From IMG/VR virus record IMGVR_UViG_2585427748_000017, positions 1-9,677 of that record: DNA of 9,677 nt. The stretch is one strand, 5' to 3'. A program made the translations under genes and the position numbers. Below the pieces are notes generated by a model that worked only from the letters and a program-made list of their open reading frames with translations, had not been told where the DNA came from and did no database searches. Of this stretch, positions 1 through 9,677 are shown piece by piece. This DNA comes from a virus (taxonomy: Duplodnaviria > Heunggongvirae > Uroviricota > Caudoviricetes). Numbering within the stretch: the stretch's first letter is position 1; each line of letters opens with the position of its first letter.

Positions 1-138
1 GTGTTTGATTTTAGCAAACTGATTCGGGAGATTCGAGTGATGGCTGAAAAATTATCCACCTGGAAGTTCATTCTTATCTGGCTGGTGTTTGTGATTATGG
101 CCTCCGGTTATTTCATCGGTCAGATACGCTGGTGGTGA
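1..138 (+). CDS. 3' end of an unidentified upstream gene (45 codons in window); C-terminal hydrophobic segment, stop 4 nt before Rz start
   Basis: Only frame 1 is open across 1-135 (frames 2 and 3 hit stops within the first 25 nt); stop TGA at 136-138 with Rz ATG at 140, suggesting translational coupling. Translation ...KLSTWKFILIWLVFVIMASGYFIGQIRWW ends in an approx 18-residue hydrophobic stretch. It does not resemble the C-terminus of lambda R or phage 21 R endolysin as I recall them. Function not assigned. Confidence 0.35.
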   Translation: MFDFSKLIREIRVMAEKLSTWKFILIWLVFVIMASGYFIGQIRWW

Positions 139-139
139 A

Positions 140-607
140 ATGAACCGCGTACTGTGCGTGGTCATCATTGCCCTGCTGGTGGCCTGTGGTGCGCTTAGTC
201 TGGGGCTGAATCATTACCGTGATAACGCCATAACCTACAAAGAGCAGCGCGATAAAAAAGTCAGTGAGCTGGAGCTGGCAAATGCAACCATTACTGATAT
301 GCAGCAGCGCCAGCGTGATGTTGCTGCACTTGATGCCAGATACTCGAGGGAATTAGCCGATGCGAGAGCTGAAAATGAAACTCTTCGCGCTGACGTTGCC
401 GCTGGTCACCGCAGCCTGCGGATCAACGCCACCTGTCCAGGTCCCGTGCGTGAAGCCACCGGCACCGCCCGCGTGGATAATGCAACCGGCCCCCAACTGG
501 CAGACACCGTTACACGGGATTATTTCACCCTCAGAGAGCGGCTGATGACGATGCAGAAGCAACTGGAAGGGGCACAGGACTATATCCGCACTCAGTGCCT
601 GAAATAA
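140..607 (+). CDS. Rz: Rz i-spanin (inner-membrane spanin subunit), lambda Rz homologue
   Basis: 155-aa ORF with N-terminal hydrophobic anchor (VLCVVIIALLVACGALSLGL) followed by NHYRDNAITYK...DMQQRQRDVAALDA...RDYFTLRERLMTMQKQLEG, which aligns along its length with lambda Rz as I recall it. Stop TAA 605-607. Contains an embedded +1-frame lipoprotein ORF (Rz1). Confidence 0.85.
   Translation: MNRVLCVVIIALLVACGALSLGLNHYRDNAITYKEQRDKKVSELELANATITDMQQRQRDVAALDARYSRELADARAENETLRADVAAGHRSLRINATCPGPVREATGTARVDNATGPQLADTVTRDYFTLRERLMTMQKQLEGAQDYIRTQCLK
360..545 (+). CDS. Rz1: Rz1 o-spanin (outer-membrane lipoprotein spanin subunit), fully embedded in Rz in another frame
   Basis: 61-aa ORF inside Rz: MRELKMKLFALTLPLVTAAC (signal peptide with lipobox-like TAAC) followed by a proline-rich mature part VKPPAPPAWIMQPAPNWQTPLHGIISPSESG, closely matching lambda Rz1 (…CVKPPPPPAWIMQPPPDWQTPLNGIISPSERG). 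Stop TGA 543-545. Confidence 0.8.
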   Translation: MRELKMKLFALTLPLVTAACGSTPPVQVPCVKPPAPPAWIMQPAPNWQTPLHGIISPSESG

Positions 608-957
608 GTTTTGCTGATGCGCGGTATTGTCGCCGTATCCCCGCATTAACAGAGACCGCAGCCCGACAGGGAGACTCCTCTGCGCGAGTGTGCGGGGATA
701 ATCAAAAACGATACACACCGGGGTTTACCGCGTTAACGGAGCGCGGCGTTGTCCCCTCATAGTCGCCTGTCCGGTGCGATGGTGGAAGAAGCCGGATGTT
801 TATCACTATTAATTGATGACACAGAAATGGATTCATTGAATTTCAGCACGTTTTTGTATTCGTGTTATTGAACATCTGTTTATTTTACTTTTAACATATT
901 GATAATAAAAAGAGCTGTAAATCTTTAGATGAGTCGATTTTGTCCGGGGAAGTTCAA

Positions 958-1098
958 ATGGATTTTATGCTGACGGTTTCTGGTGTGGTTATCCTGTCCA
1001 TTGCTTATACTGCAGATAAATATGGCTGCCATTTGTTATCACGTATTGGCGCTTATTGTTCGTTGATGCTGATTTTCTCGTCGCTTTTTTTTGAGTAA
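958..1098 (+). CDS. hypothetical small hydrophobic protein (46 aa), possible membrane peptide
   Basis: ATG at 958 preceded by GGGGA (945-949, 8-nt spacing); translation MDFMLTVSGVVILSIAYTADKYGCHLLSRIGAYCSLMLIFSSLFFE, stop TAA 1096-1098. Lies in an AT-rich island; candidate promoter TTGAAC (868-873) - 18 nt - TAACAT (892-897). Below the 60-aa cutoff of the supplied ORF track; coding status unproven. Confidence 0.3.
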   Translation: MDFMLTVSGVVILSIAYTADKYGCHLLSRIGAYCSLMLIFSSLFFE

Positions 1099-1230
1099 GT
1101 TATATTAATTATAACAAATAATTTTCTGTGTTATTTTTTCAGGCTATCCCGTCAGAGGGGAAGCCTGTACTGCCAGGGAGCGAATGGAAAACTGATGTGT
1201 CCGGTAACTGCGTGTTCTGTGAACACCATG

Positions 1231-1416
1231 TTACTTAATTATGTAATTCATACCCGAACTCTCTGTTGACAGCCTTCTTCTGCAGGCTTCAATAACCCAC
1301 GCTGAAAAGTTTCCTGAACCTTTCAGATCAAGAGCGATGTTAATTTGTTCAATCATCTGGTTTGGAAATCGGATGTTGCGGGTTGTTGTTCTGCGCGTTC
1401 TGTTTTTTGATGACAT
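1231..1416 (-). CDS. ylcI: small ribbon-helix-helix-like protein, YlcI-like (DUF3950 family) of DLP12-type prophages
   Basis: 61-aa minus-strand ORF MSSKNRTRRTTTRNIRFPNQMIEQINIALDLKGSGNFSAWVIEACRRRL..., with ATG at 1416-1414 and GGGGA 7 nt upstream on the minus strand. Basic N-terminus, short beta-strand (IRF), then two helices is the RHH pattern. Position immediately upstream of and divergent from cos/Nu1 matches ylcI-nohD in E. coli DLP12 as I recall it. Confidence 0.65.
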   Translation of the reverse strand: MSSKNRTRRTTTRNIRFPNQMIEQINIALDLKGSGNFSAWVIEACRRRLSTESSGMNYIIK

Positions 1417-1589
1417 AATGTTTCCCCATATTCAGTGTTGCTGATTTGTATTATCAGAAGTTGCTTTTACGTTAATTTGACGCAGATCAATTAATACGAT
1501 ACCTGCGTCATAATTGATTATTTCTCGTGGTTTGATGGCGTACACACATGTTGTGATAAACCTTATATAGATGATAATAATTATCATTT

Positions 1590-1850
1590 CGTGGGTCCTT
1601 TCCGGCGATCCGACCGGTTACGGGGCGGCGACCTCGCGCGTTTTCACTATTTATGAGATTTTTTGAGGGGGTGGTTGTTGTTTAATTGTTTGGTATATCT
1701 AATTGATAAGTAAGGTGAAAATAAAATAAATACAACAACCTTACGATGTGTTTTGATGTCGTCAATGCGAAAAATGTCAATGATATCAAATGGTTTTGCA
1801 AAAACACATGGTTGTTGTTTCGCTTTTTATCGATGACTTATGGAGAGGAG
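1590..1850. other. cos: cos packaging site: cosQ-side flank, cosN (12-nt cohesive end GGGCGGCGACCT at 1623-1634) and cosB region up to the Nu1 start
   Basis: Sequence ATAATTATCATTTCGTGGGTCCTTTCCGGCGATCCGACCGGTTACG|GGGCGGCGACCTCGCGCGTTTTCACTATTTATGA matches the lambda right-end/left-end junction nearly base for base (lambda: ...GGGTCCTTTCCGGCGATCCGACAGGTTACG|GGGCGGCGACCTCGCGGGTTTTCGCTATTTATGA). The downstream approx 215 bp before Nu1 carries direct repeats TGGTTGTTGTTT (1672-1683, 1809-1820) and GTCAATG (1761-1767, 1776-1782), candidate terminase/IHF binding elements. Confidence 0.85.
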
Positions 1851-2357
1851 ATGGCCTTTTTATTGAATAAAAGTGATATGGCCTCCTCCATCGGTATCTC
1901 TGTTCAGGCATTTGATAAATGGGGCGTTCCTCCTGTTGAACGTCGGGGGAGGGAAGTTTTATATGACGTTAAAACTGTACTGGAGATAGATCGCGAGCGG
2001 CGACAACACAATCAGAGAACACCTGATGACGGGGGAGAACTGGAGGAAAGGCTGCTTCGGGCCAGAGCTGAACTGACAGAAGAACAGGCTGTAGCTCAAA
2101 AACTTAAAAATCAGGTAACCGAAGGTAAGCTCATCGATTCAGACTTCTGCGTTTTCGCCCTCAGCAAACTGGCGATGGCATTGTCCAGTACGCTTGATTC
2201 CATTCCGTTATCCATGCAGCGACAGTTCCCGGATTTAACGCCACGTCATATTGACCATCTGAAAACCCTTATTGCAAAGGGCGCAAATCAGTGTGCGCGG
2301 GCAGGGGATAAATTACCGGATTTGCTGGATGAATATATCAGAGCAACAACTGAATAA
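1851..2357 (+). CDS. nu1: terminase small subunit (lambda gpNu1 homologue)
   Basis: ATG 1851 preceded by GGAGAGGAG. Translation MAFLLNKSDMASSIGISVQAFDKWGVPPVERRGREVLYD... aligns with lambda Nu1 (winged-HTH N-terminus, ...FALSKLA...LPLSMQRQFPDLTPRHIDHLK..., C-terminus LLDEYI). The 3' end overlaps the gpA start as in lambda. The ORF-track start at 1746 lies in cosB and is rejected. Confidence 0.85.
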   Translation: MAFLLNKSDMASSIGISVQAFDKWGVPPVERRGREVLYDVKTVLEIDRERRQHNQRTPDDGGELEERLLRARAELTEEQAVAQKLKNQVTEGKLIDSDFCVFALSKLAMALSSTLDSIPLSMQRQFPDLTPRHIDHLKTLIAKGANQCARAGDKLPDLLDEYIRATTE

Positions 2358-4257
2358 TATGGTGGCCGCCGTTTCGGTTGCGCTGCAGCCTCTGGTCAGG
2401 GTTGTACCGATGACGGCAGTTGAATGGGCTGACCAGTATTATTATCTGCCGAAAGAATCCTCATACGGTGACGGCGAATGGAAAACGCTGCCGTTCCAGA
2501 TCGCCATCATGAACAGTATGGGGAATGATCAGATCCGCACTGTTAATCTGATTAAATCTGCCCGTGTTGGCTATACAAAGATGTTGCTGGGAGTCGCCGG
2601 GTATTTTATTGAGCATAAATCCCGAAACAGTCTGCTTTTTCAGCCCACGGATTCTGCCGCTGAAGATTTTATGAAGTCTCACGTGGAGGCGACGATTCGG
2701 GACGTGCCATGCCTGAAAGATCTTTCCCCGTGGCTGGGTCGTAAACATCGTGACAATACTCTCACGCTGAAACGCTTTTCATCGGGGGTGGGCTTCTGGT
2801 GCCTGGGTGGTGCGGCAGCAAAAAACTACCGTGAAAAATCCGTGGACGTGGTCTGCTATGACGAACTTTCCTCGTTCGAGCCGGATGTCGAAAAAGAGGG
2901 CTCGCCAACCCTGCTGGGGGATAAGCGTATTGAGGGCTCGGTATGGCCAAAATCCATTCGCGGCTCGACGCCTAAAATAAAAGGCTCCTGCCAGATCGAA
3001 AAAGCGGCCAACGAGTCGGCGCATTTCATGCGTTTTTATGTGCCCTGCCCGCACTGTGGGGAGGCGCAGTATCTGAAATTTGGCGATGAGTCCACGCCTT
3101 TTGGCCTTAAATGGGAGAAGGACAGCCCCGAAAGCGTTTTCTACCTCTGTGAACATCATGGCTGCGTGATCCATCAGTCTGAGCTTGACCAGAGCAACGG
3201 GCGGTGGATCTGCGAAAACACGGGGATGTGGACCCGCGACGGTCTGACGTTTTTCAGCGCCGCGGATAATGAAATTCCGCCGCCGCGCTCCATCACATTC
3301 CATATCTGGACGGCGTACAGTCCGTTCACCACCTGGGTACAGATTGTCTATGACTGGCTGGATGCACTGAAAGATCCCAACGGCCTGAAAACCTTTGTGA
3401 ACACCACGCTGGGCGAGACCTGGGAAGAGGCCGTGGGCGAAAAACTCGATCACCAGGTACTGATGGATAAGGTTGTGCATTACACGGCGGCGGTGCCTGC
3501 CCGGGTGGTTTATCTGACGGCGGGCATTGACTCGCAGCGAAACCGTTTTGAGATGTATGTCTGGGGATGGGCACCGGGAGAGGAAGCTTTTCTGGTGGAT
3601 AAAATCATCATTATGGGCCGTCCCGATGAGGAAGAGACGCTGTTACGTGTGGATGCGGCGATCAACAAAAAATACTGCCATGCAGACGGAACCGAAATGA
3701 CCATTTCCCGTGTCTGCTGGGACACCGGGGGGATCGATGGTGAAATTGTCTATCAGAGGTCAAAAAAACACGGTGTTTTCCGGGTGCTGCCGGTAAAAGG
3801 CGCATCTGTCTATGGCAAGCCGGTGATCACCATGCCGAAAACCCGCAATCAGCGGGGCGTTTATCTGTGTGAAGTGGGGACGGACACCGCAAAAGAAATT
3901 CTCTATGCCCGTATGAAAGCCGAGCCCACGCCTGCGGATGAAGCCACGTCGTATGCCATCCGTTTTCCTGATGATCCGGAGATTTTTTCGCAGACAGAGG
4001 CGCAGCAACTGGTCGCGGAAGAGCTTGTGGAGAAGTGGGAAAAAGGAAAGATGCGTCTGCTGTGGGATAACAAAAAGCGGCGTAACGAAGCGCTGGACTG
4101 CCTGGTGTATGCCTACGCGGCATTACGTGTGTCCGTGCAACGCTGGCAGCTTGATCTGGCTGTACTGGCAAAATCCCGGGAAGAAGAGACGACCCGGCCA
4201 ACCCTTAAAGAACTGGCAGCGAAGCTGTCCGGAGGAGTGAATGGTTACAGTCGCTGA
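2329..4257 (+). CDS. A: terminase large subunit (lambda gpA homologue)
   Basis: Collinear with lambda gpA over the full length (TAVEWAD..YYLPKESSY, GFWCLGGAAAKNYREKSVDV, GDKRIEGSVWPKSIRGSTPK, CPHCGE.QYLKFGD, HIWTAYSPFTTWVQIV, CWDTGGID, KRRNEALDC, RWQLDL). ATG 2329 (MNISEQQ) corresponds to lambda MNISNSQ; the TTG at 2272 listed in the ORF track is an upstream artefact. Stop TGA 4255-4257. Confidence 0.95.
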   Translation: MNISEQQLNNMVAAVSVALQPLVRVVPMTAVEWADQYYYLPKESSYGDGEWKTLPFQIAIMNSMGNDQIRTVNLIKSARVGYTKMLLGVAGYFIEHKSRNSLLFQPTDSAAEDFMKSHVEATIRDVPCLKDLSPWLGRKHRDNTLTLKRFSSGVGFWCLGGAAAKNYREKSVDVVCYDELSSFEPDVEKEGSPTLLGDKRIEGSVWPKSIRGSTPKIKGSCQIEKAANESAHFMRFYVPCPHCGEAQYLKFGDESTPFGLKWEKDSPESVFYLCEHHGCVIHQSELDQSNGRWICENTGMWTRDGLTFFSAADNEIPPPRSITFHIWTAYSPFTTWVQIVYDWLDALKDPNGLKTFVNTTLGETWEEAVGEKLDHQVLMDKVVHYTAAVPARVVYLTAGIDSQRNRFEMYVWGWAPGEEAFLVDKIIIMGRPDEEETLLRVDAAINKKYCHADGTEMTISRVCWDTGGIDGEIVYQRSKKHGVFRVLPVKGASVYGKPVITMPKTRNQRGVYLCEVGTDTAKEILYARMKAEPTPADEATSYAIRFPDDPEIFSQTEAQQLVAEELVEKWEKGKMRLLWDNKKRRNEALDCLVYAYAALRVSVQRWQLDLAVLAKSREEETTRPTLKELAAKLSGGVNGYSR

Positions 4258-4447
4258 ACTACAGGCGCTGCGTCAGGCGCGCCTTGATTTATTAACCGGT
4301 AAACGGGTGGTGTCTGTCCAGAAAGATGGTCGCAGAATTGAATATACGGCGGCTTCTCTGGATGAGCTTAACCGGGCGATCAATGATGCGGAGTCGGTAC
4401 TGGGGACAACCCGACGTCGCCGTCGTCCGCTGGGAGTGAGGTTATGA
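4241..4447 (+). CDS. W: head-tail joining / head completion protein (lambda gpW homologue)
   Basis: 68-aa ORF with GGAGGAG 4 nt upstream. MVTVAELQALRQARLDLLTGKRVVSVQKDGRRIEYTAASLDEL... matches lambda gpW (…[27 protein letters not shown]…). Overlaps the gpA 3' end; stop TGA 4445-4447 overlaps the B start (ATGA). Confidence 0.85.
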   Translation: MVTVAELQALRQARLDLLTGKRVVSVQKDGRRIEYTAASLDELNRAINDAESVLGTTRRRRRPLGVRL

Positions 4448-6036
4448 AACGAACGCCTGTCCTGATTGATGTGAACGGCGTTCCGCTTCGTGAGAGTCTC
4501 AGCTACAACGGGGGCGGCGCAGGATTTGGCGGGCAAATGGCGGAGTGGTTGCCACCGGCGCAGAGTGCCGATGCGGCCCTGCTACCCGCGTTGCGTCTGG
4601 GGAATGCCCGGGCAGATGATCTGGTGCGCAATAACGGAATAGCGGCTAATGCGGTGGCTCTGCATAAGGATCACATTGTCGGGCATATGTTTCTGATCAG
4701 CTACCGTCCGAACTGGCGCTGGCTGGGGATGCGGGAGACCGCAGCAAAAAGTTTTGTCGATGAGGTGGAGGCGGCCTGGTCGGAATACGCCGAAGGGATG
4801 TTTGGTGAGATCGACGTGGAAGGAAAACGCACGTTCACGGAATTTATCCGTGAAGGTGTGGGCGTTCATGCGTTTAACGGCGAAATCTTTGTGCAGCCGG
4901 TCTGGGATACGGAGAGTACGCAACTGTTTCGTACGCGTTTTAAAGCCGTGAGTCCGAAACGGGTGGACACGCCTGGACACGGTATGGGGAACCGTTTTCT
5001 GCGGGCCGGTGTGGAGGTCGATCGATATGGCCGTGCCGTCGCGTACCATATTTGTGAGGACGATTTTCCGTTCTCTGGTAGTGGACGATGGGAACGGATC
5101 CCGCGTGAACTTCCCACCGGGCGTCCGGCCATGCTGCATATTTTCGAGCCGGTGGAGGACGGGCAGACCCGTGGAGCCAATCAGTTTTACAGCGTTATGG
5201 AACGGCTGAAGATGCTGGATTCCCTGCAGGCAACACAGCTTCAGTCGGCCATAGTGAAGGCGATGTATGCAGCGACGATTGAAAGTGAACTTGATACCGA
5301 AAAGGCCTTTGAATATATCGCCGGTGCGCCGCAGGGGCAGAAGGATAATCCGCTTATTAATATTCTGGATAAGTTCTCCACCTGGTATGACACGAATCAC
5401 GTGACGCTGGGCGGTGTCAAAATTCCGCACCTTTTCCCCGGTGATGATCTGAAACTTCAGACCGCGCAGGATTCAGACAATGGATTTTCGGCGCTTGAAC
5501 AGGCGCTGCTGCGGTATATCGCCGCCGGTCTTGGCGTTTCCTACGAACAGTTGTCCCGTGATTACTCGAAGGTCAGTTATTCAAGTGCCCGCGCCTCCGC
5601 CAATGAGTCGTGGCGCTATTTTATGGGGCGGCGAAAATTTATTGCGTCCCGGCTGGCCACGCAGATGTTTTCCTGCTGGCTGGAAGAGGCACTTCTTCGG
5701 GGGATTATTCGTCCGCCACGGGCACGGTTTGATTTTTATCAGGCGCGATCAGCCTGGTCACGGGCTGAGTGGATTGGAGCCGGAAGAATGGCCATTGACG
5801 GGCTCAAGGAGGTTCAGGAATCAGTGATGCGCATTGAGGCCGGACTGAGCACGTATGAGAAAGAGCTGGCGCTGATGGGCGAGGATTATCAGGACATTTT
5901 CCGCCAGCAGGTCAGGGAATCTGCAGAGCGGGAAAAAGCCGGACTCTCACGTCCGGTGTGGATAGCGCAGGCGTATCAGCAGCAGATAGCGGAGAGTCGC
6001 AGGCCGGAAGAGGAGACAACACCACGTGAGACGTAA
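4444..6036 (+). CDS. B: portal protein (lambda gpB homologue)
   Basis: 530-aa ORF collinear with lambda gpB ([140 protein letters not shown]). Confidence 0.95.
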
Positions 6037-7759
6037 TCTTTCACACATTATTGCCGCAGCATTCAATGAACCGCTGCTTCTGGAGCCCGCCTATGCGCGG
6101 GTTTTCTTTTGCGCGCTGGGGCGCGAGATGGGGGCAGCAAGTCTTTCGGTACCGCAACAGCAGGTACAGCTTGATGCTCCCGGAATGCTGGCTGAAACGG
6201 ACGAGTACATGGCCGGAGGTAAACGACCTGCCCGTGTTTACCGGGTGGTGAACGGTATTGCGGTACTGCCGATGAGCGGCACGCTGGTGCACCGGCTGGG
6301 GGGGATGCGGCCATTTTCCGGAATGACTGGCTATGACGGCATTGTCGCCTGTCTTCAGCAGGCAATGGCAGATAGCCAGGTGCGGGGCATACTGCTGGAC
6401 ATTGACAGTCCGGGCGGGCAGGCCGCCGGCGCGTTTGACTGCGCTGACATGATTTACCGCCTCCGTCAGCAGAAGCCGGTCTGGGCACTGTGCAATGACA
6501 CGGCCTGTTCTGCAGCCATGCTGCTGGCGTCGGCCTGCTCCCGACGGCTGGTTACCCAGACATCCCGTATCGGCTCCATTGGCGTGATGATGAGCCATGT
6601 CAGCTATGCCGGTCATCTGGCGCAGGCCGGTGTGGATATCACGCTGATTTATGCCGGGGCGCACAAGGTGGATGGCAATCAGTTTGAAGCGTTGCCGGCA
6701 GAGGTTCGCCAGGATATGCAGCAGCGGATTGATGCGGCGCACCGGATGTTTGCCGAAAAAGTGGCGATGTATACCGGGTTGTCTGTGGATGCGGTCACGG
6801 GAACAGAGGCCGCCGTTTTTGAAGGTCAGTCCGGCATTGAGGCCGGGCTGGCGGATGAATTAATCAATGCGTCGGATGCCATCAGTGTGATGGCCACGGC
6901 GCTGAACAGTAATGTCAGAGGAGGCACTATGCCGCAATTAACTGCAACGGAAGCCGCCGTGCAGGAGAACCAGCGAGTGATGGGGATCCTGACATGCCAG
7001 GAAGCGAAAGGACGTGAACAGCTTGCCACGATGCTGGCAGGGCAACAGGGCATGAGCGTTGAACAGGCCCGGGCGATTCTGGCCGCGGCGGCACCGCAGC
7101 AGCCGGTGGCATCCGCGCAGAGTGAAGCCGATCGCATTATGGCGTGTGAAGAAGCGAACGGTCGTGAACAACTGGCAGTAACGCTGGCGGCGATGCCGGA
7201 GATGACGGTGGAAAAAGCCCGCCCGATCCTGGCTGCTTCACCGCAGGCGAATGCCGGACCATCACTCCGTGATCAGATCATGGCCCTGGATGAGGCAAAA
7301 GGGGCTGAGGCGCAGGCTGAACAGCTGGCTGCCTGCCCGGGAATGACCGTGGAGAGCGCCCGGGCTGTGCTGGCTGCGGGATCAGGTACGGGGTCTGCCG
7401 GTGATCATACTCATGGTAATGGTATTCGTTGGCCAGGAGGCGGCGGTTCTGCGTTAGCATTTTATGATGGCGGTGGGTTCACTTATGTCCAGGATTCACA
7501 GTATCAAGTAAGCCCGGGGACTTCTTCCCGTAGATCGTATTATCAACGTATTCAGACACAGTCAGCAGGTGCTCATACCCACTCGCTGTCTGGTACTGCA
7601 GCAAGTTCTGGCGCACATGCACATACTGTAGGTATTGGTGCGCATACGCACTCCGTTGCGATTGGTTCACATGGACACACCATCACCGTTAACGCTGCTG
7701 GTAACGCGGAAAACACCGTCAAAAACATCGCATTTAACTATATTGTGAGGCTTGCATAA
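6026..7759 (+). CDS. C: chimeric ORF: gpC-like prohead protease (S49/SppA-type) with Nu3-like scaffold region, fused in frame near 7380-7400 to a side-tail-fibre (Stf-like) C-terminal His-box domain; likely a deletion remnant
   Basis: First approx 450 aa align with lambda gpC ([105 protein letters not shown], then the IMGIL..EA.GRE module). The last approx 125 aa (GDHTHGNG...[10 protein letters not shown]...[28 protein letters not shown]...[16 protein letters not shown]) carry repeated HxH motifs and the ending typical of lambdoid tail-fibre C-termini; the stop overlaps the tfa start (TAATG). GC content falls at the junction. The start is GTG 6026 (GAGGAG 10 nt upstream) overlapping the B stop; exact start uncertain. 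Confidence 0.75.
6929..7759 (+). CDS. nu3: nested in-frame internal start corresponding to lambda Nu3 scaffolding protein (here continuing into the fused tail-fibre domain)
   Basis: In-frame ATG 6929-6931 preceded by GAGGAGG (6918-6924) that is itself coding (R-G-G-T-M); this mirrors the lambda C/Nu3 arrangement (…SGGRM TKETQ…), where Nu3 starts inside C in the same frame. Expression not verifiable from sequence. Confidence 0.4.
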
Positions 7760-8343
7760 TGGCATTCAGAATGAGTGAACAAGCACGGACCATAAAAATT
7801 TATAATCTGCTGGCCGGAACTAATGAATTTATTGGTGAAGGTGACGCATATATTCCGCCTCATACAGGTCTGCCAGCAAACAGTACCGATATTGCACCAC
7901 CAGATATTCCTGCTGGCTTTGTGGCTGTTTTCAACAGTGATGAGGCATCGTGGCATCTCGTTGAAGACCATCGGGGTAAAACGGTTTATGACGTAGCGTC
8001 AGGGGACGAGTTATTTATTTCTGAACTCGGTCCGTTACCGGAAAATGTTACCTGGTTATCGCCGGAAGGGGAGTTTCAGAAGTGGAACGGCACAGCCTGG
8101 GTGAAGGATACGGAAGCAGAAAAAATGTTCCGGATCCGGGAGGCGGAAGAAACAAAAAACAACCTGATGCAGGTAGCCAGTGAGCATATTGCGCCGCTTC
8201 AGGATGCTGCAGATCTGGAAATTGCAACGGAGGAAGAAACCTCATTGCTGGAAGCCTGGAAAAAGTATCGGGTGTTGCTGAACCGTGTTGATACATCAAC
8301 TGCACCTGATATTGAGTGGCCTACGAACCCTGTCAGGGAGTAA
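7759..8343 (+). CDS. tfa: tail fibre assembly protein (Tfa; lambda Tfa / Mu U / T4 gp38 family)
   Basis: 194-aa [54 protein letters not shown]...[42 protein letters not shown], which I recognise as the Tfa proteins of E. coli lambdoid prophages. The start overlaps the upstream tail-fibre stop (TAATG), the usual stf-tfa coupling. Confidence 0.85.
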
Positions 8344-8391
8344 TCATTGGGATTATGCCGCAGCACGTCTTAAGCAAGAACGTGCTGCGGT
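8178..8391 (+). repeat. direct repeat copy A (tfa 3' end plus downstream hairpin); partner at 9227-9441
   Basis: By eye about 210 bp align between 8178-8391 and 9227-9441 at an offset of about 1049 bp with most positions identical, including the stop codon, TCATTGGGATTATGCCGCAG and the ACGTGCTGCGGTT hairpin arm. Exact identity not computed. Confidence 0.8.
8358..8390. other. perfect 11-bp inverted repeat (CCGCAGCACGT / ACGTGCTGCGG) with 11-nt loop, 15 nt after the tfa stop and 8 nt beyond the convergent methyltransferase stop; possible bidirectional terminator or recombination/junction element
   Basis: Left arm 8358-8368 and right arm 8380-8390 are exact reverse complements. A T6 run follows after a 10-nt gap on the + strand, so this is not a textbook intrinsic terminator. 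A near-identical copy with a 1-nt bulge occurs after the second tfa copy (9407-9440). Confidence 0.3.
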
Positions 8392-8397
8392 TGGATG

Positions 8398-9066
8398 CTA
8401 TTTTTTCCCTGAAGCGGAAAACATTACTACAGTACCTTGAACCTTGGTTTTAACATTCTCGAAATGCTCTGAGAGTATATGTGTTAAGCCTTCTTCGGAA
8501 TCTTTTGTGTTTGAAAAGATGCCTTTCTGATTGTAAATGCGCATCAGTTTTTGACCGAAGCTATTGTGCACAACTCCATCGCCAAGAATTGTGGCTCCGT
8601 ATAGAGTTCCATCGTCAGTTAAGGCCTGCGCCGCATTGCGTATTACACAGCTTTTTGTAGATATATTTCCAGGCAGGCAGTGAAGAAGGTAAAACATGGA
8701 AATGGAATCAAATTGACCATGTAACGCCGCGGGATAAGGTTCAAAAACATCATGGCTAATTTTATGTTTAATTTTTGATTCCCCAGCCCTTGTAGATGCC
8801 GCGTTCAGGCTAGCTTCGTTCAAATCCATTAAAGATATCAGACTACTCTCAGGTACGTGAGTAAGGTAAAACCCAGTTCCAACACCAATATCCAGATGGT
8901 TGTTACCTACATGTTCCAGAAAGTGTGGAAGAAGGTGTTCCTTTGTAGGACATCCCCATGCAAGCCGATTTGATACTCCCAAAACCCACCAGTCATAAAG
9001 CTTTAGGGTAAGTGGTGTGTAAATTTTAGCCCCATCATCTGTGTTTTTTTTCATTGATTTCACCAT
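8398..9066 (-). CDS. ybcY: class I SAM-dependent methyltransferase (Rossmann fold), YbcY-like prophage moron
   Basis: 222-aa minus-strand ORF with methyltransferase motif I LDIGVGTGFY, an acidic residue ending the next strand (SLMDLNE) and a motif II-like FDSISMFYLLHCLPG. No DPPY/NPPY motif, so not obviously a DNA N6-adenine methyltransferase. Visibly more AT-rich than the flanking tfa and head genes. The position between two tfa copies on the opposite strand matches tfaD-ybcY-tfaX in DLP12 as I recall it. The start may be the second ATG (9054, MKKNTDD) rather than 9066. Confidence 0.7.
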   Translation of the reverse strand: MVKSMKKNTDDGAKIYTPLTLKLYDWWVLGVSNRLAWGCPTKEHLLPHFLEHVGNNHLDIGVGTGFYLTHVPESSLISLMDLNEASLNAASTRAGESKIKHKISHDVFEPYPAALHGQFDSISMFYLLHCLPGNISTKSCVIRNAAQALTDDGTLYGATILGDGVVHNSFGQKLMRIYNQKGIFSNTKDSEEGLTHILSEHFENVKTKVQGTVVMFSASGKK

Positions 9067-9122
9067 GTTATAGTTTTATTTGTGAATTAAATCAATTATG
9101 GCGATGAATTACAAGGGGTTAA

Positions 9123-9392
9123 ATGCTGCCGCAGCATAGCGATATTGAAATAGCCTGGTATGCTTCGATACAGCAGGAGCCGAATGGCTGGAAGACCGTC
9201 ACCACACAGTTCTACATCCAGGAATTCAGTGAGTATATTGCGCCACTGCAGGATGCTGTAGATCTGGAAATCGCAACGGAGGAAGAAAGATCGTTGCTGG
9301 AGGCATGGAATAAATATCGGGTATTGTTGAATCGTGTTGATACATCAACTGCACCTGATATTGAGTGGCCTGCAAATCCTGTCAGGGAGTAA
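9123..9392 (+). CDS. tfaX: truncated tail fibre assembly protein copy (TfaX-like; C-terminal Tfa domain with unrelated 35-aa N-terminus)
   Basis: 89-aa ORF; the C-terminal 54 aa ([54 protein letters not shown]) are near-identical to the C-terminus of the 7759-8343 Tfa, while the N-terminus [35 protein letters not shown] is different. ATG 9123 with AAGGGG 4 nt upstream. Probably a remnant of a second tail-fibre cassette. Confidence 0.65.
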
Positions 9393-9441
9393 TCATTGGG
9401 ATTATGCCGCAGACACGTCGTATGCAGGAACGTGCTGCGGT
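9227..9441 (+). repeat. direct repeat copy B (tfaX 3' end plus downstream hairpin); partner at 8178-8391
   Basis: See copy A. The two copies bracket the opposite-strand methyltransferase gene. Confidence 0.8.
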
Positions 9442-9506
9442 TAGTTTGTGAGCTTTCGATAGTGGTTGTTATTTTTGCCCTTATTTGTTCCGGAGGCCAT
9501 GGTTCA

Positions 9507-9677
9507 ATGGTCCGTCTGCCCCCTGTGGTGATGTCAGCAAAATCAGCCACTGCGCGAACCACAATAGCCCGGGAAGATGCTGAAGATCACCAGGTAAAGC
9601 TATCAGCGCAGAAACTGGAAGAACTGCTCGCATCAATGGTTAAGGATGAGGTTGATCGCAATGATGGGATTTATTGA
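9507..9677 (+). CDS. hypothetical small protein (56 aa), charged and probably helical
   Basis: ATG 9507 with GGAGG (9493-9497) 9 nt upstream; translation MVRLPPVVMSAKSATARTTIAREDAEDHQVKLSAQKLEELLASMVKDEVDRNDGIY; stop TGA 9675-9677 at the window edge. The longer TTG-initiated ORF in the track (9396) starts inside the tfa repeat and is rejected. No family recognised. Confidence 0.35.
   Translation: MVRLPPVVMSAKSATARTTIAREDAEDHQVKLSAQKLEELLASMVKDEVDRNDGIY

Follow-up and report, generated by a model that had tools for sequence, protein, structure and literature searches.

A 46-codon open reading frame (ORF) between the lysis genes and the cohesive-end site of a lambdoid Escherichia coli prophage is, at best, a weakly constrained, lineage-restricted gene for a small membrane peptide, and a chance ORF is nearly as likely. 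We tentatively favour the reading in which a small, weakly constrained gene for a membrane hairpin rides on a moron-like insert. A role as toxin or modulator, as proposed in the earlier note on this DNA, is pure conjecture. The observation is real but ordinary, and most of what made the ORF look promising is also what T-rich DNA produces by itself.

The window, meaning the whole 9,677-nucleotide (nt) stretch that was analysed (positions 1 to 9,677 of IMG/VR record IMGVR_UViG_2585427748_000017), belongs to a lambdoid E. coli prophage read along late transcription. Rz occupies 140-607 (Pfam Phage_lysis, E=6e-48), with Rz1 embedded in it at 360-545, and is followed by 620 nt without large genes. 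Beyond that gap, ylcI/ynfO (DUF3950; 1231-1416, - strand; Pfam E=9e-19, also NCBIfam and RefSeq annotation) runs convergently with the 46-codon ORF, and the packaging region continues with cosN, the lambda cohesive-end sequence GGGCGGCGACCT (1623-1634), and the small (1851-2357) and large (2329-4257) terminase subunits. The ORF thus lies between the lysis genes and cos, where the earlier note had placed it. As side observations, the segment from inside ylcI to cos (1282-1663) shares ~86-87% identity with the right end of lambda-like phages, and ylcI/ynfO also matches a HicB-like antitoxin family, PHROG 497, weakly (E=0.012). Upstream, between the lysozyme gene and Rz, a 45-amino-acid ORF with one hydrophobic segment (MFDFSKLIREIRVMAEKLSTWKFILIWLVFVIMASGYFIGQIRWW; 1-138, + strand; phrog_6632, E=1e-29) corresponds to hypothetical protein WP_000459345.1; its product is probably a small membrane protein within the lysis cassette.

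The 46-codon ORF is carried on an AT-rich island of ~425 bp (805-1230). Composition by segment gave 29-42% GC for the island, as against 53-58% in Rz, in the GC-rich block just upstream and in the structural genes. Alignment with ST131 strain 4224 revealed an empty site, in which the GC-rich block (equivalent to window 617-804) directly abuts the 3' end of ylcI, so that the window has ~425 extra bases at 805-1230. In a second context, which lacks ylcI (locus L089), the right boundary of the island falls at ~1216 and a different packaging module follows; because the ORF and island persist there without ylcI, the island appears to move as its own unit. Relative to related prophages, 805-1230 is, to judge from these alignments, a discrete insertion. 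Two marks of a moron, insertion where two blocks adjoin in related phages and an atypical base composition, are both found in the island, which would make it a moron-like insertion of ~425 bp, flanked by a conserved RNA element that follows the lysis genes and by the ylcI/cos packaging region.

Phage lambda offers a useful comparison, in which the order is Rz, bor (annotated at 46,459-46,752), the GC-rich block (46,862-47,042) and then lambdap78/p79. The earlier note had equated the position of the ORF with that of bor. The comparison with lambda holds only in amended form: the bor slot lies 5' of the structured GC-rich element and the ORF lies 3' of it, and hence in the p78/p79 position. The accompanying claim that no bor-like ORF is present was borne out: Pfam had no match for any of the five remaining ORFs (>=30 amino acids) listed within 595-1238. 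Separately, a second cargo slot in bor's place, 5' of the structured element, holds an extra hypothetical ORF of ~216-225 bp after Rz in some relatives from O157:H7 and ST131 (L084, 2548-2772; L002, 2261-2485; L093, 1270-1485).

Direct reading confirmed the ORF itself (MDFMLTVSGVVILSIAYTADKYGCHLLSRIGAYCSLMLIFSSLFFE; 958-1098, + strand, ATG start, 46 codons) and a GGGGA resembling a Shine-Dalgarno (SD) sequence at 946-950 (+ strand), whose spacing to the ATG we counted as 7 nt. Further upstream, a conserved AT-rich block (868-915, + strand) holds weak sigma70-like matches on both strands: TTGAAC-18-TAACAT at 868-897 (+; TTGAAC 868-873, TAACAT 892-897), TTTATT-16-GATAAT at 879-906 (+) and TTTACA-17-TATGTT at 921-893 (-). 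These promoter-like motifs occur in all three alleles of the island. Only the minus-strand site reaches the threshold of our promoter scanner (9 of 12 matches), both plus-strand sites scoring 8/12, and scanner sites in this region were no more numerous than in shuffles. The sigma70 promoter of the earlier note is therefore present as a sequence at 868-897 but lies below the threshold.

At its 3' end the ORF runs into a T8 tract (1085-1092, + strand) with length variants. These alter only the last residues (FFE, FF or FFFLSKLY): slippage in the tract does no harm, since whichever frame results meets a stop codon within six codons. Two hairpins lie downstream. The first, CAGGCTATCCC-GTCAGA-GGGGAAGCCTG (1140-1167, + strand, found by folding), has no U-tract after it on either strand and is poorly conserved in allele B; the second, a weak terminator-like hairpin called by the scanner between the ORF and the ylcI stop codon (1212-1226, + strand), is not conserved in allele B. 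Scanner, fold and allele comparison together yielded no conserved intrinsic terminator 3' of the ORF.

The ORF had been described as unannotated, which proved wrong for RefSeq. PGAP calls it as WP_000347013.1, hypothetical protein, in the RefSeq loci examined; all 60 rows sampled from the 734 matching genomes carry a hypothetical protein under the match; UniRef lists the product as an uncharacterised protein; and the annotation is missing only in one GenBank phage record. A literature search for the accession WP_000347013 found no paper that mentions it. The supplements of a small-gene Ribo-seq study in strain Sakai (PMC5597208) contain neither the peptide, nor its DNA, nor ylcI/ynfO; the Stx1 prophage Sp15 of Sakai is without the island. 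The locus is not covered in the Pas sRNA preprint or in the AgvB/AsxR paper, and our literature search found no expression data for an island-carrying strain.

Across 5,426 complete E. coli genomes, the island was found in 734 (788 places), nearly always at >=98.7% identity, in strains that include O157:H7, O104:H4, O26, O103 and O111. O104:H4 2009EL-2050 and EHEC 86-24 are among the carriers. It also occurs in 95 IMG/VR contigs and 59 metagenome contigs, with the same three alleles only. Allele A is the type found in the window; allele C, found in the context without ylcI, has 89-91% amino-acid identity; and allele B has 71% amino-acid and 81-82% nucleotide identity. Among GTDB representatives, one genome for each of 185,579 species, the island was absent and there was no relative. 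The peptide had no family match in Pfam, PHROGs, NCBIfam or PADLOC, and word-indexed homologue searches with alleles A and B returned the peptide's own clusters only. An exhaustive HMM search of 1.84 billion protein representatives recovered its own family together with low-complexity matches in large proteins, which we regarded as spurious. On these searches, the 46-codon ORF is an ORFan confined to E. coli prophages in three alleles.

The strongest rival to a gene is a chance reading frame in non-coding AT/T-rich accessory DNA, a remnant or spacer, which we consider possible if somewhat doubtful. The RefSeq 'hypothetical protein' would then be an ab initio call spread via protein clusters, and the higher conservation of 868-915 and 958-1092 would stem from DNA or RNA constraint or from patchy recombination. 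ORFan status, with no family found even by exhaustive search, suits such a frame. So do the properties of the single sequence: no feature of it, whether length, hydrophobicity or promoter match, goes beyond chance when taken singly. When the 426-nt island was shuffled with its dinucleotides preserved, 42% of the shuffles contained an ATG ORF of 46 codons or more (P=0.42), and the GRAVY of 1.11 compares with 1.06 +/- 0.34 for random stop-free translations of the same base composition (P=0.44). T makes up 44% of the ORF and outnumbers every other base at each codon position; the hydrophobicity of the peptide is a by-product of this T-richness.

Structure prediction agreed with the earlier description of a hydrophobic peptide with membrane helices. 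The AF2 model is a helix-turn-helix hairpin with two predicted helices (residues 2-21 and 25-44; mean pLDDT 85), in which the hydrophobic stretches are ~15-17 residues each and the insertion energies borderline. Helical hairpins are generic, and a Foldseek search of this one against viral structures returned nothing at E<=0.001.

The evidence on selection points both ways. The earlier note had named frame conservation in homologous loci as its own test. The ORF survived it, being intact in 157/157 loci (isolates, IMG/VR and metagenomes) and in all three alleles, which speaks against a chance frame. An intact frame is a weak test, however, because a neutral frame stays open after 24 random substitutions in 46-68% of cases (simulated probability 0.46-0.68). 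The start codon argues in the same direction as the frame: 8 of the 157 loci, four of them from the IMG/VR set, have GTG instead of ATG, which is still a start codon. Initiation signals have likewise been kept at optimal spacing within a diverged leader; alleles A and B share only 69% identity in the 5' untranslated region (UTR), but CGGGGAA and CAAATGG are unchanged in every allele, with a variable spacer between them. The ORF has also diverged less than other parts of the island (Fisher p=0.0011), its A-B identity being 82%, against 63-71% for the non-coding parts and 81% for ylcI. Finally, the single-nucleotide polymorphisms (SNPs) within alleles comprise four synonymous changes and one non-synonymous (P=0.07), a ratio that runs counter to a chance frame and is only suggestive of purifying selection.

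Amino-acid evolution tells against the gene. The 24 A-B differences in the ORF fall 8/6/10 by codon position, and the 13 amino-acid changes that they cause compare with 14.7 expected under neutral simulation (P=0.28); this simulation detected no purifying selection at the protein level between alleles A and B. Residues that did change were replaced slightly more conservatively than at random (P=0.06-0.10). Neighbouring genes behaved quite differently in the same simulations, which hold the observed transition:transversion ratio. In codons 1-50 of ylcI, the same number of differences falls 1/2/21 by codon position and changes 5 residues where 15.7 were expected; in Rz, 22 residues changed where 34.9 were expected; none of 10,000 simulations was as low in either case. 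Both ylcI and Rz are under clear purifying selection, whereas the amino-acid evolution of the ORF is neutral-like, as a chance frame would have it. SNP density within the main allele, equal in the ORF (4.3 per 100 nt) and the upstream non-coding DNA (4.5 per 100 nt), also suits a chance frame. A Nei-Gojobori dN/dS of 0.31 looked supportive of a gene at first sight; it is an artefact, because simulations that model transition bias and codon content show it to be misleading.

Our preferred reading, a weakly constrained membrane-hairpin gene on a moron-like insert, would accommodate these results as follows. The ORF would be a young ORFan, restricted to this lineage and most likely translated from the conserved GGGGA-N7-ATG. 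Its weakly constrained product would sit in the inner membrane as a hairpin of two short helices, for which the positive-inside rule predicts a cytoplasmic loop (K21/H25/R29) and two periplasmic termini. Transcription may start from the weak, conserved promoter-like block at 868-906, and in any case the ORF, being on the late strand, would be covered by Q-antiterminated late transcripts that read through from the lysis genes. We picture a dispensable accessory membrane peptide outside the holin/endolysin/spanin machinery, since that set is complete without it.

A second rival holds that the island acts as RNA, either a small RNA or a leader from 868-915, possibly together with the upstream structured RNA, and that the ORF is incidental. 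We judge this unlikely. The promoter-like block, not the ORF, is the most conserved piece of the island (the 48 nt of 868-915 are 92% identical between alleles A and B, their flanks 69-71%), a covarying RNA element adjoins the island, and 900-1240 folds somewhat better than shuffles (z=-2.3). In addition, the predicted pairing partner of the SD region (CGGGGAA) is UUUCUCG, close to the 3' end of the ORF, and this pairing is invariant in all alleles; it proves nothing, because neither side varies and G-U accounts for two of the seven pairs. Against an RNA function, compensatory change was seen in 3/60 pairs among four sequences (three alleles), with an unfavourable covariation term in RNAalifold, and there is no conserved terminator. 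Rfam, searched over 560-1900 both with its gathering thresholds and with E relaxed to 10, offered no credible match there, the island included.

A third possibility is that the ORF encodes a candidate membrane-active peptide specific to E. coli prophages, either type I toxin-like or an effector of superinfection exclusion or abortive infection. We regard it as very unlikely. On this view the peptide would evolve almost neutrally because hydrophobic helices are all that it requires, or because it is caught in an arms race, and the predicted pairing between SD and 3' end would control its expression. In its explicit form, a toxin like those of type I toxin-antitoxin systems, or an abortive-infection or superinfection-exclusion peptide, that damages or gates the inner membrane and is restrained by antisense RNA or SD sequestration, the proposal is highly improbable. 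Size, hydrophobic hairpin and prophage location suit the class, and the long-range pairing recalls the fold-back inhibition of hok, but two of its seven pairs are G-U and none covaries. An antisense promoter-like site inside the ORF (991 to 962) is present in alleles A and C but missing in allele B. At 46 amino acids and a GRAVY of 1.11, the peptide has the size (<~60 amino acids) and hydrophobicity of type I toxins, a GRAVY that equals the compositional expectation; base composition thus explains the hydrophobicity, and the strong constraint typical of toxins is not seen. No toxin or defence family of PADLOC, Pfam or PHROGs matched the peptide, and no Rfam antitoxin RNA matched at the locus. 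What stands of the toxin or modulator idea in the earlier note is that a small membrane peptide is possible; its hydrophobicity is compositional, and neither a toxin or defence family nor an antisense RNA could be linked to it.

Two further identities were rejected. The three minus-strand ORFs listed within 700-1035 are all <=44 amino acids and have no Pfam match, against ~97 amino acids for the lipoprotein Bor, which is encoded on the minus strand after Rz. A holin or antiholin is disfavoured by the position of the 46-codon ORF ~350 nt past Rz, outside the lysis cassette, by a class II holin already annotated upstream in the same prophage, and by a C-terminus (...SSLFFE) without a charged tail, together with the lack of a Pfam or PHROG holin match.

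Among known systems, the island most resembles the lambdoid morons (lambda bor, lambdap78/p79), being an extra segment of atypical composition in the known cargo hot spot that separates Rz from the packaging genes, with a single small ORF behind a promoter-like sequence. It differs from morons in that its promoter is weak and a terminator not demonstrable, and from bor in having its ORF on the late strand and its insertion point past the conserved RNA element (3' of it). The island ORF has no sequence or family relationship to Bor or to other described cargo genes. The cryptic prophages of E. coli K-12 likewise have cargo genes next to ylcI/ynfO. Hok, Ldr, TisB and ShoB are type I toxins or small hydrophobic proteins of <50 amino acids, typically with a single transmembrane helix. 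The candidate peptide shares with them a very short hydrophobic product on a mobile element; in contrast to them, it has no homology, no conserved antisense RNA gene, two short predicted helices and a hydrophobicity explained by composition. Lineage-restricted ORFans or proto-genes in bacterial accessory DNA are a concept treated in two reviews (PMC12315717, PMC12542359). The ORF resembles proto-genes in that it is short and AT-rich, occurs only in the prophages of a single species, may be translated and bears no signature of purifying selection; unlike a random proto-gene, it has a conserved SD and ATG and diverges less than its flanks, which hint at more constraint.

If the preferred reading is true, lambdoid prophage cargo gains one more uncharacterised small membrane protein, a peptide gene in ~13% of complete E. 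coli genomes, which would not be surprising. The methodological point is broader. T-rich accessory DNA gives an ORF of such size and hydrophobicity and a sigma70-like match by chance, and a frame that stays intact among close relatives is weak support for a gene; a real signal is what the neighbouring genes display at an equal number of substitutions.

The structured RNA candidate next to the island may matter more than the ORF and may deserve a study of its own. It spans ~190 nt (612-806, + strand; pairs ~619-797) immediately 5' of the island and coincides with the GC-rich block, which is far more widespread than the 46-codon ORF. We found it at 4,520 places in 1,891 of the 5,426 E. coli genomes and in 398 phage records, including Stx1 and Stx2 phages, mEp460 and Salmonella phage SPN3UB; individual copies lie in lambda (NC_001416, 46,862-47,042), Sakai Sp15 (~2,919,074-2,919,268, - strand) and loci L094 (1196-1390) and L095 (1189-1383). 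It always stands after lysis or accessory genes and before a packaging module of whatever type. An alignment of 28 diverse copies yielded eight helices with 44 base pairs, 97.7% of cells paired and 12 pairs with compensatory double changes; column shuffles gave 3.6 +/- 1.3 such pairs (0/500 reached 12) and slid controls 2-7. Many one-sided changes produce U-G or G-U pairs, which indicates the late-sense strand. A covariance model scored 218 bits on the window copy, which is in the training alignment, and 112 bits (E=1e-30) on lambda 46,862-47,042. Rfam had no match for the candidate at gathering thresholds or at E up to 10, and its conserved sequence strings were in no paper found by our literature search, where it may go by other names. 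By covariation, 612-806 is a candidate structured RNA that is conserved from lambda through Stx phages to Salmonella phages.

In a distant part of the window, the structural-gene region, 8102-8300 (+ strand) is a full-length Rfam match to IS009 (RF02111; 223.8 bits, E=1.6e-55). IS009 matches are reported in a 2026 preprint to be frequent in the flanks of the prophage sRNA PasB.
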